A DNA stretch of 64,000 nucleotides from a virus (taxonomy: Duplodnaviria > Heunggongvirae > Uroviricota > Caudoviricetes): IMG/VR virus record IMGVR_UViG_3300045988_163275, positions 43,752 to 107,751 of that record; one strand, written 5' to 3'. Shown in pieces: positions 17,331 to 56,746 of this stretch (position 1 is the stretch's first letter; each line of letters begins with the position of its first letter). A program made the translations under genes and the position numbers. The notes beneath the pieces were generated by a model. It was not told the origin of the DNA. It saw only the letters and a program-made list of their open reading frames with translations, and did no database searches.

Positions 17331-17436
17331 ATCCACTATAGGGAGCAAAATAACCACTGTAGAGAGCATAATAACCGCTATGAAGAGCAAAACAACCTCT
17401 CTGGAGAGTAGTCGGTATCCACTGTAGTGAGTAGGA
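17331..17436. repeat. iteron array (about 5 units of approx 21 bp, core CCACTGTAGnGAG)
   Basis: Tandem units atccactatagggagcaaaata / accactgtagagagcataataa / ... / atccactgtagtgagtaggag. Confidence 0.7.
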
Positions 17437-17713: not shown

Positions 17714-17840
17714 ATCCACTATAGCGAGAATAACAACCACTATGGAGAGTAAATCAACCACTATGGAGAGTAGAAAAACCGCTGTAGGCGGTAGGATAAC
17801 CACTGTGATGGGTGCTACTATCCACTGTAATCAGTAAAGG
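17714..17840. repeat. iteron array upstream of repA
   Basis: Units atccactatagcgag, accactatggagag (x2), ccgctgtaggcgg, accactgtgatggg, tccactgtaatcag. Confidence 0.7.
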
Positions 17841-17874: not shown

Positions 17875-18930
17875 ATGAGCGTAAACGACAATAAAAACAT
17901 TGCGATAAGCGAAGCATTTTCCGAAACAGACAAAAAGACCGGCGAAGTTGTTACGTTAGTTCCTAACACCAACAACACAGTTCAGCCTGTTGCTCTGATG
18001 CGTCTTGGTCTCTTCGTTCCGACGCTGAAATCGACATCCAGGGGTAGAAAGGGGCAAATGGTCTCTATGGACGCCTCCGCTGAACTCAAACAGCTGTCTC
18101 TGGCCAAAGCCGAAGGGTACGAGGATATAAGGATTGCTGGTCTTCGTCTTGATATGGATAACGATTTCAAAACATGGGTGGGCATCATCCACGCGTTCGC
18201 CAAGCACAAGGTTGTTGGTGACACCGTCACGTTGCCGTTCGTCGAGTTCGTCAGACTTTGTGGCATACCAACAGCCAGATCGTCCGCGAAGTTACGTAAG
18301 CGCCTGGACAGCTCTCTAAGTCGTATCGCCACAAACACCATCTCATTCCGCAGCAAAGGCTCTGAAGAGTATTACGTTACGCACCTTGTGCAGACGGCAA
18401 AGTACAGTACCAAGAATGACACGGTCGAACTGAAGGCCGATCCTAAGATTTTCGAACTTTACCAGTTCGACAAAAAGGTGCTTTTGCAACTTCGGGCCAT
18501 CAACGAACTCTCCAGAAAGGAATCCGCGCAGGCGCTCTACACCTTCATTGAAAGTTTGCCACCAGACCCGGCGCCAATCTCATTGGCTCGCTTACGCGCC
18601 AGACTTAACTTAACCAGCCGCACCATTACCCAGAATGCGACAGTCAGGAAGGCGATGGAGCAACTGCGAGAGATCGGCTATCTCGATTACACTGAAGTGA
18701 AACGCGGCAGCTCGGTCTACTTCGTCATCCACTATAGACGGCCGAAGTTACGTTCGGCACTGCCGCCATCTATGGCCACGCCTGAAGATCCAGAAGATAT
18801 CTTGCCAGGTGATGATCCGGAGGACATTATCGATGTTGCTCCTGAAGAAAAAGACGGGGAAATGGTCATGTTGAGCAAGGAAGAACTGGCGATTCTCGAA
18901 GAGCTGCGCAAGGCAAAGGCTCGCAAATAG
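17875..18930 (+). CDS. repA: replication initiator RepA (P1/RepFIB-like)
   Basis: Blocks [60 protein letters not shown] match my recollection of P1 RepA; flanked on both sides by iterons. Confidence 0.8.
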
Positions 18931-51326: not shown

Positions 51327-52649
51327 TCATTCTTTATCTCCAATACGATCTTCGGTATCTCGAAGACATTTAGGCCACTTCAGACGTGGATGACGCAAGC
51401 TACCATCTGGCGTTTTCTCATGGCAGTGAACCTCAACGATGCGTCCACGATACTTCTCCTGATTGTTCCAGATTTCATCCAGGTATTTATGCTTGATACC
51501 GCTGGCACGAACGATGACGCCGTTCTCCAGACGAATCACTATCTTGCCTAGCGTATGCGCAAATCCAGAATCCGGATCGCCAGGCTCGAAGTCGATGATT
51601 TCACCGTCTTCTGAATCCTCGTCTTTCAGCTTCCACCAGCTGCGGGTACGTTTGAACTCGTAAACTGAATCCGGATCTTTGCCCATCTCTCCCTCTTCAT
51701 TCTCGTCCAGTCGCTTCATGAAACGTTCGATGAAATCTTCGTGGCTATGGATGATGTAGAACGGATGAAGGTGGATATCTTGCGCATAATCTTCCACGCA
51801 AGTGTTGCGGAACAACGCCACCAGCATAGCCAGGCGCTCTTTCAGCTTCATACCGGTCTTCAGGTACTCTTTGCTTTTTGCCTGAGCACGCCACTCCGGT
51901 AAGAAGAAATCGAAAATGTGGTAAACGGCACCAATGGCTTTCACGTTCTTCTTACGAAGCGCCGACACTGACTGGTTGAATGTACCTGCAGTGCCCTCTC
52001 CATCGAAGAAGATGTGATTGAAGCCGGAGAGTCTGCCCCGCTCCAGCATGGCTGGTTTAAGGTGATCGAGTGACGTAATCGGATTGCCGGTGCGCGTCAG
52101 GAAATTGACCTCACCCTCGTCCACGATGACTTCGCAGATAACCCGGAGACCATCGAGTTTGAGACTGCCGATCATTGGCCACTTGGCCTTTGGATTTGGT
52201 TTAAATGGGTATTTGTCGCCTTTCTCCTTGTACGGAGACGCCAGCTGTACCTCAAACTTCGGAATTGGGTTTTCGAACACCTTGTTGCACAGGCTGATGC
52301 CGACACCGGCTTTCGGATCTTTCAGCAGGAAGCGACGAAACACGTCCTGCCCGTCAGCGCACATCGAGGCAACGAGTGATTCGACAGCAGCAATAGCGAT
52401 GTTCCCGGTCAGTTCGCGCGCTGCCAGCTTCTCCAGCAGATCTACTACCTTCTGGTCGCTGGGTACGGAAGTATCGAGTGGCTCGGCCACTTTGTACTTC
52501 TTCACACCGAATCGAATGAATGGATTGAGCATTAGCGAGACCATGCTCTGTTCAAATTCATCCAGATTGGCCAGTGCCTCTTTCTTGGCGTTGGTTCCCA
52601 TCGTTTTAATAGCATCCAGCTTGTGCTTTAGGGCGATCAGTTTTTCCAT
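51327..52649 (-). CDS. ATP-dependent DNA ligase
   Basis: Motif I KLDGLR (KxDGxR adenylation lysine), motif V-like WWKLK. Confidence 0.8.
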   Translation of the reverse strand: MEKLIALKHKLDAIKTMGTNAKKEALANLDEFEQSMVSLMLNPFIRFGVKKYKVAEPLDTSVPSDQKVVDLLEKLAARELTGNIAIAAVESLVASMCADGQDVFRRFLLKDPKAGVGISLCNKVFENPIPKFEVQLASPYKEKGDKYPFKPNPKAKWPMIGSLKLDGLRVICEVIVDEGEVNFLTRTGNPITSLDHLKPAMLERGRLSGFNHIFFDGEGTAGTFNQSVSALRKKNVKAIGAVYHIFDFFLPEWRAQAKSKEYLKTGMKLKERLAMLVALFRNTCVEDYAQDIHLHPFYIIHSHEDFIERFMKRLDENEEGEMGKDPDSVYEFKRTRSWWKLKDEDSEDGEIIDFEPGDPDSGFAHTLGKIVIRLENGVIVRASGIKHKYLDEIWNNQEKYRGRIVEVHCHEKTPDGSLRHPRLKWPKCLRDTEDRIGDKE

Positions 52650-52683: not shown

Positions 52684-53160
52684 TCATGTGTTTTCTTTGG
52701 TTGCTTCTTCAATGAGTGCCGCGTACACGTCAGTGACCGGCGCCAGTGAATCGGTGAGCTTGGTTTCGGATTTAGCAGGTTCTGTTTTCTTCGTGCGATG
52801 AATAAGACTGTCAATTGTCGCGGTGTTTCGCTTCCGGGGGAGCGTTCTGGCATGGTCGTTTTGCTCTTCCACTTCTTTGATAAGTGAAGACATATCGATG
52901 AAGTAGAGCTGTTCGTCTTTGCGGATCTCTTCGACCATCATTTTCAGTGCCTGACATTTACCAGCAGCAATAGCCGCAGCGCAGGACTGGAACGATGTAG
53001 CCGGGAGACGTTTTTCTTTATAGGCGAGGATCGTGTGTTGGCAGACTGTATAGCTGCAATGAGCCTCATGGCCGTTGAGCTTCACTTCCGGGCAGCGCAG
53101 CGAATAACCGTTGTTTCCGGAGATAGACGGGATTTTCGACAAATCTGTTCTTGTGGACAT
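52684..53160 (-). CDS. hypothetical Cys/His-containing protein
   Basis: 158-aa ORF with CPEV...HEAHCSYTVCQH cluster; palindromic motif upstream. Confidence 0.4.
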   Translation of the reverse strand: MSTRTDLSKIPSISGNNGYSLRCPEVKLNGHEAHCSYTVCQHTILAYKEKRLPATSFQSCAAAIAAGKCQALKMMVEEIRKDEQLYFIDMSSLIKEVEEQNDHARTLPRKRNTATIDSLIHRTKKTEPAKSETKLTDSLAPVTDVYAALIEEATKENT

Positions 53161-53240: not shown

Positions 53241-54053
53241 TTACCAGGTCGCCCAGCCAGTCATTTTGTCCTGAGCAGCTTCGAACCGGTATGGGTCCAG
53301 TAAATCGTTGGTACGATGAACGGCGTAGGATTTGGCTTCTTGTTTAATCATGGGTAATTCGTTGGCCATACGAGCCACTTGCCCTGCAAAACTGGCGAGT
53401 ACTCCGTCACATGCCTGACCCGCGTCGACAATGATGCGCACCAGGTCTAAGTCGCTGCGGCACATATCGCAGATAATGCCGTATTCCACCTCACGAATGC
53501 GCTCAACGGCTTTTTTGATATCGCCACTGACCACCAATTCCAGCAAACCAGGTGGAGTTGTCAGATCTGTTACGCGCTCGGTAACTTCAGACTGTTCGAC
53601 AATACTCAGGAACGCCGCGATGGACGGGTCATCCGCCACACCAGCTCTGACTTTGAGCGTGCGAAGAGTTGCGTCGACAATATCCTCAAACCGTTCACCT
53701 TCATCGCACACAGTCTGATTGGTGTAGACAGTCTGATTAGTGTAGACAATGCGACCGTCGTACCATGCACCGGTACTCACTTCGACCGTTGCGTCTTTCA
53801 TCTCGCGAGAGAACGCCACAAGTGCCGCGCGTTTCTGCTTAACACCTGGCAACTCCGGGGACTCTCCAAAACGAACCCAGACCTGCATGTATTTCGAGCC
53901 TTCCGAAAGAGGTACGGTGCTCACGGACGTGGCGATATGCTCCAGTGCAGTTTGGATCGCCTCGTCGATAATCTTCTGGCGCTCTTCTGTATCAATTTCT
54001 ACGCCTGATTTGTCGATGATTTCGGTAACGGACTTCTGAATATCTGCTTTCAT
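53241..54053 (-). CDS. hypothetical protein containing an 18-bp tandem duplication
   Basis: 270-aa ORF; YTNQTVYTNQTV encoded by duplicated tctgatt(g/a)gtgtagaca. Confidence 0.45.
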   Translation of the reverse strand: MKADIQKSVTEIIDKSGVEIDTEERQKIIDEAIQTALEHIATSVSTVPLSEGSKYMQVWVRFGESPELPGVKQKRAALVAFSREMKDATVEVSTGAWYDGRIVYTNQTVYTNQTVCDEGERFEDIVDATLRTLKVRAGVADDPSIAAFLSIVEQSEVTERVTDLTTPPGLLELVVSGDIKKAVERIREVEYGIICDMCRSDLDLVRIIVDAGQACDGVLASFAGQVARMANELPMIKQEAKSYAVHRTNDLLDPYRFEAAQDKMTGWATW

Positions 54054-54133: not shown

Positions 54134-55318
54134 TTATACAAGAGCTTTAATGCCGAGTACCTTGCTTTGTAGCTCCAACTGTCTGGAGTACGGTTTGGCA
54201 CGATAATAGGCTTTGAGGATCTGCTCTGGTGTCGCGTCGCCGGGGTCGAGACCTTCCTCGCCCAGACAGGCCACTTTGACATTCAGTCCTATGCTGGTGA
54301 GACGTTTGGCCGCCGACATGGTGTTGCGGATCGCTTGCTTCTCGCTATCCCACATCATGATGACGTTGCGTAATCCACGCGCCTTGAGCGTCAGGAACGC
54401 GCCCAACTGATCTTCAGCGTCCTCATTCATATTTCCGGACAAGTGCATCCCGAACGTGCCAATTGGCTCCACGTAATCCCGCAGCGTCTCTTCGTCGAAG
54501 ATGGCACGCTTCACGCCCATTACGTCAAATGCCCCTTCACACACAACGACCGTTTGTTTTCCGACTGCGTTGTGGCCGTTGTAGAGAAACTTACCCGACG
54601 CCGGCAACTGCATGGGGAAGAGATAACGGCGTTCTGCTGCACCGGTAATGTCACGCCCCTGGAAGGTCTTCATCACGCCATCCAGATCGTAAACCGGTAT
54701 CAGGATGCGCATATCAAACACCTGCCCTTTGACCTGGTCTGTGTACGGATCGACGTATGCGTGCTTGCCTTCGACGCAGTAACGCAGATCAAAGTATTTG
54801 GCCAGCTCCGGGGAAATATGGCGCTCCACCAGATAATCAGGAAGACGACCGTCAATGGGGAGTTCGTAATGGCGCGGGAGAGCTACTGGCCCTTCGAGTT
54901 CAACCTTGCTGGCCAGCACGATCTCTTCCTTCTTCGGCGCCCAACCTTGTGAGATCAGCGCGTTCTGGACGTACTCTTCAAAATCGCGACGGGATTTGCC
55001 GCTGTAGTGCTTGAGGAAGACCAGCTTATTGAACTGAATCTCTTCGGGATGATCACCAGCAAAGCATTTGCCGACGCCATTGGTCAGGTTGAAATAAACC
55101 TTCCAGTTTGAGCTGCCGCATACCGGACACTCTTTAATGTTGACCTCTCGTCCGCGAGTACTGACTCCACCACGACGGTAGATGATCCCTTCCATATCGA
55201 GCCATTGCTCAAAATCCAGCTCGGTCAGTAATTCTTTCAAGTCGCTCACGTTCTTACCCCTGTTTTTTGCAGGTAATATCTTGATAAGCCTCGGTATTTG
55301 AATACCATAAAGGCTCAT
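54134..55318 (-). CDS. dnaG: DNA primase (zinc-binding + TOPRIM)
   Basis: Zn-binding CPVCGSSNW...CFAGDH and TOPRIM-like VVVCEGAFDVMG; start placed at ATG 55316-55318. Confidence 0.7.
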   Translation of the reverse strand: MSLYGIQIPRLIKILPAKNRGKNVSDLKELLTELDFEQWLDMEGIIYRRGGVSTRGREVNIKECPVCGSSNWKVYFNLTNGVGKCFAGDHPEEIQFNKLVFLKHYSGKSRRDFEEYVQNALISQGWAPKKEEIVLASKVELEGPVALPRHYELPIDGRLPDYLVERHISPELAKYFDLRYCVEGKHAYVDPYTDQVKGQVFDMRILIPVYDLDGVMKTFQGRDITGAAERRYLFPMQLPASGKFLYNGHNAVGKQTVVVCEGAFDVMGVKRAIFDEETLRDYVEPIGTFGMHLSGNMNEDAEDQLGAFLTLKARGLRNVIMMWDSEKQAIRNTMSAAKRLTSIGLNVKVACLGEEGLDPGDATPEQILKAYYRAKPYSRQLELQSKVLGIKALV

Positions 55319-55405
55319 GTGTTTTTTCTTTTGTGGTTTTGGCAAAAGAGAAATTTGTTCTCTTCTGGAGACAGGCGTGGAGAGTGTTTCCCCACGCCTT
55401 CTTTT

Positions 55406-56746
55406 TTAGAGGACGTCCATAATGCGTTCGATGAATCGCATTTGTTCGAGGTTCTGCTTAACGCGGATGCTTACGCCGCCTTTCTGGTTACGTGAACCAG
55501 CGAAGTAAAGACGCGCTTCGCCTTTCGCTTCTTCTTCTTCCGTTTTGTTGATAGTGATAACGAGGTCAGCGATACGCACCTTCTCGATGTTGTCCGCTGC
55601 GTGCATCATTGTAGCCACCTCAGAAGCGCCACCTTCTCTGTTAGTCTGCGATGCCGTGATGCCGGCAACGTTGTGTTTGTCGTACAGCGCACGCAGGTCA
55701 GTGTAGATGCTGCGAATGTTAGCGCGGTCGTCGCGGAGGTCGTAGCTGGCACGCATCAGGTCAGCGTAGTCGACCACAACCATATCGGGGACCATACCGT
55801 TGGCTTTCATGCTGCCCAACATACGGTCCAGATCTGCGGGCGACATGCTTCCGGAGGGTCGTTCAACAATCCACAAACTTCCCACGCCTTTCGTCGCACC
55901 CAGCTCTGCCAGTTTGCGATGGACGTCATCGCGACGTTCCACCAGCCTGGACATTTCGGTCTCAGACAGACGGGCGTCAAAGCGATCTGACAGAATGGAG
56001 GTGTGAACTTCCAGCGACAGATACAGGACGTTGTAACCGGCAAGCGTGGCGTTGATGGAAAACTCCCCCATCGCCGTCGATTTACCAGACTTAGCGAAGC
56101 CCATAAATAGCACCATTTCACGCTTTGCCCAGCCTTTCTGGTAAAGCAGCTTGTCGAGCAGCGGGAGGCCGGTAGTGATGCTGTTTGGCACGTAATCGTC
56201 GGACGCTTCGTACTCACGGGCCTTGTAACGCTCCGCTGATTCTGCGAAGTAATCGTAAATGCCGGTCGCTTCGTTAGAGCCGATTTGCTGGACCTTAGCC
56301 ATGATTGCCATCGCGCCCTGGAAATCGCCCTTCTCTTTCATCTCAGCCGCTTTAATCAGCGCGTCGTCGAACGCTACGCTTTTAGCAAATGTCGCGACCT
56401 GGTCGACCATGTACGCCGTATCTGACAGCTTCTCAGCGAGAATGCGCTTAAACGCCTCAACAACGTCAGGGAACAGCTCTTCGCGGATCGTCTTATCGCG
56501 TTTGGCGCGTTTGAGCATGTCGAGGATGGCTGATGATGATGGTGCGCTCTTATACATTCTGTAGTAGCCCGACACCATGTTAACCAGAATGGAGTTAGCC
56601 GCATTAGAGAACTGGTTTGGGGCAACCAGATCGCCTGCGCGAGTCAGAAACTCATGGTCGCGACAGAAGTAGGCAGCGAGTCTATTCTGGAAGTCGTCGT
56701 CGAACTCTTCAGACAACCCTCGTCCTGTGTGGCAAAGTTCGGTCAT
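55406..56746 (-). CDS. dnaB: replicative DNA helicase (DnaB-like)
   Basis: Walker A GFAKSGKST, Walker B VVVDYADLM, arginine-finger region typical of DnaB/gp41 helicases. Confidence 0.8.
   Translation of the reverse strand: MTELCHTGRGLSEEFDDDFQNRLAAYFCRDHEFLTRAGDLVAPNQFSNAANSILVNMVSGYYRMYKSAPSSSAILDMLKRAKRDKTIREELFPDVVEAFKRILAEKLSDTAYMVDQVATFAKSVAFDDALIKAAEMKEKGDFQGAMAIMAKVQQIGSNEATGIYDYFAESAERYKAREYEASDDYVPNSITTGLPLLDKLLYQKGWAKREMVLFMGFAKSGKSTAMGEFSINATLAGYNVLYLSLEVHTSILSDRFDARLSETEMSRLVERRDDVHRKLAELGATKGVGSLWIVERPSGSMSPADLDRMLGSMKANGMVPDMVVVDYADLMRASYDLRDDRANIRSIYTDLRALYDKHNVAGITASQTNREGGASEVATMMHAADNIEKVRIADLVITINKTEEEEAKGEARLYFAGSRNQKGGVSIRVKQNLEQMRFIERIMDVL

Follow-up and report, generated by a model that had tools for sequence, protein, structure and literature searches.

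The question raised by this locus is whether an 18-bp sequence that occurs twice in tandem, in frame, inside a phage gene is an established part of the encoded protein, a site that acts at the level of DNA, a switch between protein states, or a duplication that arose in a single lineage. The locus lies in a stretch of 64,000 nucleotides that was analyzed as a whole and that we call the window.

Position and Phase of the Repeat

The repeat occupies positions 53710-53748 of the window and comprises 2.2 copies of an 18-bp unit, with a single synonymous mismatch between the copies. On the plus strand the order is acagtctgattGgtgtag (53710-53727), acagtctgattAgtgtag (53728-53745), and aca (53746-53748). 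Tandem Repeats Finder (TRF) described the repeat with a period of 18, 2.2 copies, a 95% match, and a score of 71, and a second repeat search of the window recovered the same 18-bp pair. The repeat is in frame in the minus-strand ORF at 53241-54053, where it is translated as RIVYTNQTVYTNQTVC (...DGRI-VYTNQT-VYTNQT-VCDEG...). On the coding strand the copies read GTC TAC ACT AAT CAG ACT and GTC TAC ACC AAT CAG ACT, and the one base that differs falls in a Thr codon (ACT/ACC). In gene order, copy 1 (53728-53745 on the minus strand, or 53730-53747 in the GTCTACACTAATCAGACT phase) encodes VYTNQT as residues 103-108 and has the derived T at the synonymous site (ACT). Copy 2 (53710-53727 on the minus strand, or 53712-53729 in the GTCTACACCAATCAGACT phase) encodes VYTNQT as residues 109-114 and carries the ancestral ACC, as do all single-copy outgroup alleles. 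Each 18-bp unit opens with TGT. The TGT immediately upstream of copy 1 in gene order (53746-53748, minus strand; aca on the plus strand) accounts for 0.2 of TRF's 2.2 copies, and a further TGT stands after the last unit (plus-strand positions 53707-53709).

The initial annotation of this DNA had reported a tandem, in-frame 18-bp duplication of the peptide YTNQTV, which is equivalent to VYTNQT, and the sequence, TRF, and the translation all confirm it. The two strings given there, 53714-53731 and 53732-53749, belong to the same repeat but were set 4 nt late in phase, with two mismatches between them rather than one.

The repeat is beyond chance expectation. Only 5e-5 tandem 18-bp pairs with at most one mismatch are expected per 64-kb window. 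No other tandem pair of period 12-30 was present in the window, and Markov simulations (n = 30) gave 0.07 such pairs on average. A search of both strands of the window for further copies of the 18-bp unit, with up to three mismatches allowed, found none.

Gene Family and Genomic Setting

The gene that carries the repeat (53241-54053, minus strand) encodes a 270-aa homolog of SSU5_042 of unknown function (PHROG 4248). The window protein matched phrog_4248 with an E-value of 3.6e-141, with residues 1-270 aligned to profile positions 1-266 of 266, and it shares 91% protein identity and 88% DNA identity with SSU5_042 of Salmonella phage SSU5. Judged by this profile match and by gene position, the protein is a member of the PHROG 4248/SSU5_042 family. 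Searches of Pfam and PADLOC with the window protein gave no matches. In NCBIfam the only hit was a sub-threshold DksA-like match at residues 178-209 (17.7 bits; cutoff, 105), and a PDB sequence search returned a chance match only (E = 0.26). A profile search of 1.84 billion representative proteins (50% identity) yielded 31 matches, all of them from the same narrow family or fragments.

The gene forms part of a replication module encoded on the minus strand. Its upstream neighbor is a DnaG/Toprim-type DNA primase gene (54134-55345), and a DnaB-like helicase is encoded at 55406-56746. Downstream of the gene lies an ATP-dependent DNA ligase gene (51327-52649), with a 158-aa ORF of unknown function between the two (52684-53160). 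The downstream order of repeat-bearing gene, 158-aa ORF, and ligase is common to the window, SSU5, pLAO18, and several contigs. The best plasmid matches to the gene, at up to 98.6% identity, are genes for hypothetical proteins, chiefly from E. coli, and the plasmids concerned are non-mobilizable, about 100-115 kb in size, and mostly typed as IncFIB. Because the gene resembles both SSU5_042 and genes on IncFIB plasmids of about 100-115 kb, we take the window to be an SSU5-like phage-plasmid. The SSU5 supergroup of phage-plasmids comprises the SSU5_pHCM2, pMT1, pKpn, and pSLy3 groups (PMC7969092).

Copy Number among Homologs

A single copy of the unit (gene length 795 bp, 264 aa) was found in every checked homolog outside one E. 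coli-associated sublineage, including those from SSU5, Y. pestis pMT, Salmonella, Enterobacter, Citrobacter, Cronobacter, and Klebsiella. SSU5 aligns to the entire 813-bp query over 795 bp. Protein and DNA alignments contained a clean gap of 6 aa or 18 nt in all outgroup sequences, down to 42% protein identity. Among 40 protein clusters (90% identity; 5.8 billion sequences) just one, P0001, has two copies; it is 270 aa long and has 80 members.

In the plasmid database PLSDB, where roughly 750 records carry the gene, the 813-bp allele is present in 37 plasmids, 35 of them at 97-98.6% identity and 2 at 94.5%. Three records at 95.8% identity span 796 bp. All listed records with about 90% identity or less span 795 bp, as does every member of a spread sample reaching down to 69% identity and drawn from Salmonella, Enterobacter, Citrobacter, Yersinia (Y. 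pestis pMT), and Cronobacter; for the 80-90% identity band, which holds about 200 records, the single-copy statement covers the listed records and the spread sample. The gene was present in 47 of 5,426 complete E. coli genomes and was always plasmid-borne. In 34 of these 47 it is the 813-bp allele (812 bp in one), in 3 it spans 796 bp, and in the remaining 10 it is the 795-bp SSU5-type allele. Six IMG/VR contigs from independent projects contain the duplicated structure. Hosts of the duplicated allele are E. coli, E. fergusonii, and an Enterobacter isolate, and its sources are humans, livestock, pets, birds, frogs, and wastewater. Neither IMG/VR nor the best-ranked matches in complete E. coli genomes yielded an allele with three copies.

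On these alignments the repeat is not a conserved feature of the SSU5_042/PHROG 4248 family. The initial annotation had suggested slippage or recent duplication and had named a repeat conserved in homologs as the observation that would speak against this. The homologs instead have a single copy throughout the outgroup, and this, together with the TGT/TGT microhomology at the unit boundaries described below, supports the suggestion.

Origin of the Duplication

Single-copy alleles read ...CGC(A/G)T TGTCTACACCAATCAG(A/G)C TGTGTGC.... The ancestral single-copy gene has TGT at either boundary of the unit, at a spacing of 18 bp (..CAT TGTCTACACCAATCAGNC TGTG..). Microhomology of the TGT/TGT type is the usual footprint of slipped-strand mispairing. 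We infer slippage as the mechanism of duplication: the second unit would have come from slipped-strand mispairing between the two TGTs or from an unequal exchange equivalent to it.

The arrangement of the two Thr codons bears on how often this happened. In all 11 of the duplicated alleles extracted (the window, four plasmid records, the P0001-encoding contig, and five IMG/VR contigs), copy 1 carries ACT and copy 2 carries ACC; the outgroup alleles all have ACC. The pattern indicates a single origin of the duplication followed by one C>T change in copy 1, because independent duplications would each give identical copies and not a shared ACT/ACC asymmetry. Independent recurrent gains were rejected on account of this asymmetric arrangement, which is common to all duplicated alleles. 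The gain would have occurred once, in an E. coli-associated sublineage that already had Ile102 and Thr (..CGCAT TGTCTACACCAATCAGAC TGTG..). Copy 1 would later have acquired the synonymous C>T change, and the resulting [..ACT..][..ACC..] allele would have spread with SSU5-like plasmids through E. coli, E. fergusonii, and an Enterobacter isolate.

Probable Losses of One Unit

A neighbor-joining tree was built from 43 aligned gene sequences with the repeat masked. No sub-branch of the E. coli-associated clade, basal branches included, lacked duplicated alleles, and single-copy alleles were nested at two places within that clade. At the first of these, the single-copy alleles L013 and L014 (ACC) match the duplicated pLAO18 allele (L001) base for base across the other 795 positions. 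At the second, L018 is the duplicated counterpart: the single-copy allele L024 (ACT) departs from it only by the 18-bp indel, and L016 and L017 depart from it by one base more. The two nested backgrounds, L001-type and L018-type, differ from each other at 7 sites. Outside the single-copy L024-type allele, the T variant was seen only in copy 1 of duplicated alleles.

On the simplest reading, the tandem duplication is unstable and has lost precisely one unit on at least two occasions, each in a different register. These nested events would be losses and not gains, since a gain from the nested single-copy alleles would give ACC-ACC or ACT-ACT arrangements, and neither was seen among the 11 duplicated alleles extracted. 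Conversion from outgroup alleles was excluded as a source of the nested single-copy alleles, which retain clade-specific flanking bases (CGCAT, ACT). Within the clade, part of the count of at least two losses could reflect gene conversion over short patches between co-resident plasmids. These elements are visibly mosaic, both in pNT1F34 and at the 5′ end of the window's gene.

Predicted Structure of the Single-copy and Duplicated Proteins

Two AlphaFold2 models were computed from family alignments, one for a single-copy protein (P0002) and one for the window protein. The predicted fold consists of two N-terminal helices, an antiparallel β-sheet, and a C-terminal helical domain, with a pTM of about 0.75 and an overall pLDDT of 86-89. 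The single-copy model has a mean pLDDT of 89.1. It contains a tight β-hairpin formed by strands at residues 90-98 and 101-110 (RIVYTNQTVC) with a DG turn, the corresponding blocks having pLDDT values of 94 and 92. The model of the window protein has a mean pLDDT of 85.7 and the same overall fold, with the hairpin strand fragmented. Residues 105-108 are its sole stretch below a pLDDT of 50, and the block 101-110 has a mean of 53. Copy 2 (residues 111-117) occupies the strand position beside the conserved Cys-116 in this model. The insertion is predicted to duplicate most of one hairpin strand and to bulge out. The six added residues (VYTNQT) would be tolerated in the second strand of the hairpin, which lies in the N-terminal α/β domain.

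Foldseek searches against BFVD and the PDB returned nothing at E ≤ 1e-3, and the modeled protein is a candidate for an orphan fold within the SSU5-type replication module. Four cysteines of the window protein, Cys-116, Cys-195, Cys-198, and Cys-215, are invariant or near-invariant. Cys-116 directly follows the duplicated segment, the next two form a CxxC motif, and the fourth cysteine lies 16 residues farther on. Together they may constitute a putative zinc site.

Mosaicism and Inactivation of the Gene

The gene in the window is itself mosaic. Its first ~50 nt (54006-54046, gene positions 8-48) are of the SSU5/pMT-type haplotype. The other close E. coli-clade alleles extracted have a different 5′ haplotype in common, with the exception of pNT1F34, which is also mosaic. 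Ten of the 11 differences between the window gene and the pLAO18 gene fall in the 5′ segment. Upstream, a primase gene is found in the window, in pNT1F34, and, after one extra ORF on the opposite strand, in SSU5. The pLAO18-type plasmids have at this position a 162-aa ORF and a 1558-aa HAD/DUF559/DEAD helicase fusion. Because the switch of 5′ haplotype matches the different upstream neighbor, we place a recombination breakpoint at the 5′ end of the gene.

The allele of pNT1F34-108k (L002; NZ_CP075488.1, gene 101-913) is a recombinant with 94.5% identity. Up to and including the duplication it resembles the window gene, and beyond that it is of the SSU5 type. The last codon of its copy 2 is GCT (Ala) and not ACT (Thr), which locates the haplotype switch at or just after the repeat.

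Several relatives carry broken versions of the gene. The 796-bp single-copy allele (L003, pE16EC1016-4) has a +1 A frameshift near gene position 536, and its 177-aa product, P0032, is recorded on 203 contigs. Plasmid p1 of E. coli C1 (L011) has a −1 frameshift deletion at gene position 137. In a metagenome contig from IMG/VR (L022, 9100-10409) a 1310-bp IS3-family element has inserted at gene positions 358-360, 3′ of the repeat. The element encodes an orfA product of 108 aa (HTH_Tnp_1) and an orfB product of 296 aa (rve) and is flanked by a 3-bp target duplication. Since the gene is broken by frameshifts or an insertion sequence in several relatives, selection on it in the plasmid state would appear not to be strict.

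Alternative Explanations

The account as a whole, a lineage-specific in-frame slippage duplication with one gain, nested losses, and near-neutral effect, is in our judgment very likely correct. The six-residue insertion is probably close to neutral, and the breakage of the gene in relatives fits this view. Close alleles in complete E. coli genomes are duplicated in 34 cases and single-copy in 3, and this dominance of the duplicated allele could be due to selection in its favor and not to drift or hitch-hiking. The insertion would then be non-neutral, with a lengthened hairpin before the conserved Cys-116 selected in the E. coli sublineage and reverting where the pressure is absent; an adapted interaction with the host or with a plasmid replication partner may serve as an example of such selection. 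We consider this unlikely. The preserved reading frame and the commonness of the duplicated allele in E. coli plasmids would also agree with an old, selected repeat in which two YTNQTV modules are needed for folding or binding. Against this stand the outgroup homologs, which are all single-copy across 42-92% protein identity, the divergence of the copies by only one synonymous base, and the better modeling of the single-copy protein (hairpin pLDDT >90, against a segment mean of 53 for the duplicated one), and it is extremely improbable that the repeat is a conserved structural or functional element.

The location of the gene in a replication module, between primase and ligase genes, raises the possibility that the 18-bp units are sites at the DNA level, such as iterons or operators of an origin comparable to that in the λ O gene, and that the peptide duplication is a by-product. 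The λ origin provides a precedent for origin repeats inside a gene. However, there are two units only, and one in nearly all relatives; the window holds no other copy of the unit; no adjacent A+T-rich tract is apparent by eye in the sequence; the inverted repeats found in the region are short or imperfect; and a separate Rep3-type initiator has its own 21-bp iteron arrays at 17.3-17.8 kb. A role of the units as DNA sites is hardly credible in this light. That both copy-number states occur on otherwise identical backgrounds, in two sub-branches, means that indel turnover is faster than point substitution, and it might point to a reversible contingency switch in which gain and loss of a unit toggle two functional protein states under selection, in a phase-variation-like manner. 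The change is in frame, however, and hence has no on/off effect; the copy number is one or two, and a third copy was seen neither in IMG/VR nor in the best-ranked complete E. coli genomes. One gain lies behind all of the duplicated alleles, and only losses recur, as the passive instability of a tandem duplication predicts. The frameshifts and insertion sequence in several relatives likewise suggest weak constraint in the plasmid state, and we regard a switch as very unlikely. The chance that the repeat is a sequencing or assembly artifact in the window is negligible, since independent projects have recovered exactly this structure in at least 37 PLSDB plasmids, 34 complete E. coli genomes, and 6 IMG/VR contigs.

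Comparison with Known Systems and Significance

The repeat resembles the short tandem duplications that arise by slippage or microhomology in bacterial and phage coding sequences. It is likewise short, a multiple of 3 in length, and arranged head to tail, with near-identical copies, a 3-bp direct repeat bounding the ancestral unit, and precise reversion by a single unit. Its copies, its clean single-unit indels, and its microhomology would place it in this class. VNTR and contingency loci expand, whereas the repeat has two copies and no sign of further expansion. It was not assigned to the contingency (phase-variable) loci, as it is always in frame and has one or two copies. Like the λ-type origin, with its iterons inside O, the repeat consists of direct repeats of about 18-19 bp within a gene of a replication module. 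λ O has four units, but the window gene has two and its relatives have one, and we do not consider the window gene a member of that type. The broader iteron or λ ori-type class, defined by at least three to four conserved repeats and an A+T-rich flank, was set aside in the same way. Compared with the 264-aa proteins of the SSU5_042/PHROG 4248 family, the window protein has 270 aa, owing to the VYTNQT insertion. Its gene occupies the same position in the primase-to-ligase module as other family members, with an upstream neighbor that varies among relatives.

Overall, the repeat is an ordinary in-frame indel polymorphism, widespread within a single E. coli sublineage of SSU5-like phage-plasmids. 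It can serve conveniently to mark this E. coli-associated sublineage and has little importance beyond such bookkeeping. It also offers a clear natural example of a tandem duplication that would have been gained once and precisely reverted at least twice. The protein that carries it is of more interest than the repeat itself. It belongs to a narrow family, has a confidently predicted fold with no structural relative detected in the searches above, and is an uncharacterized product of the replication module in a group of phage-plasmids that is clinically widespread.

A Rep3-family initiator gene lies elsewhere in the window, in the plus-strand ORF at 17875-18930 (Pfam Rep3_N, E = 2.4e-11). Just upstream of it are two arrays of a 21-bp direct repeat with the consensus CCACTATAGAGAGCAAAATAA, at 17333-17408 (3.6 copies) and 17716-17780 (3.1 copies). 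The arrays most likely serve as iterons at the origin that the window phage-plasmid uses in its plasmid mode.
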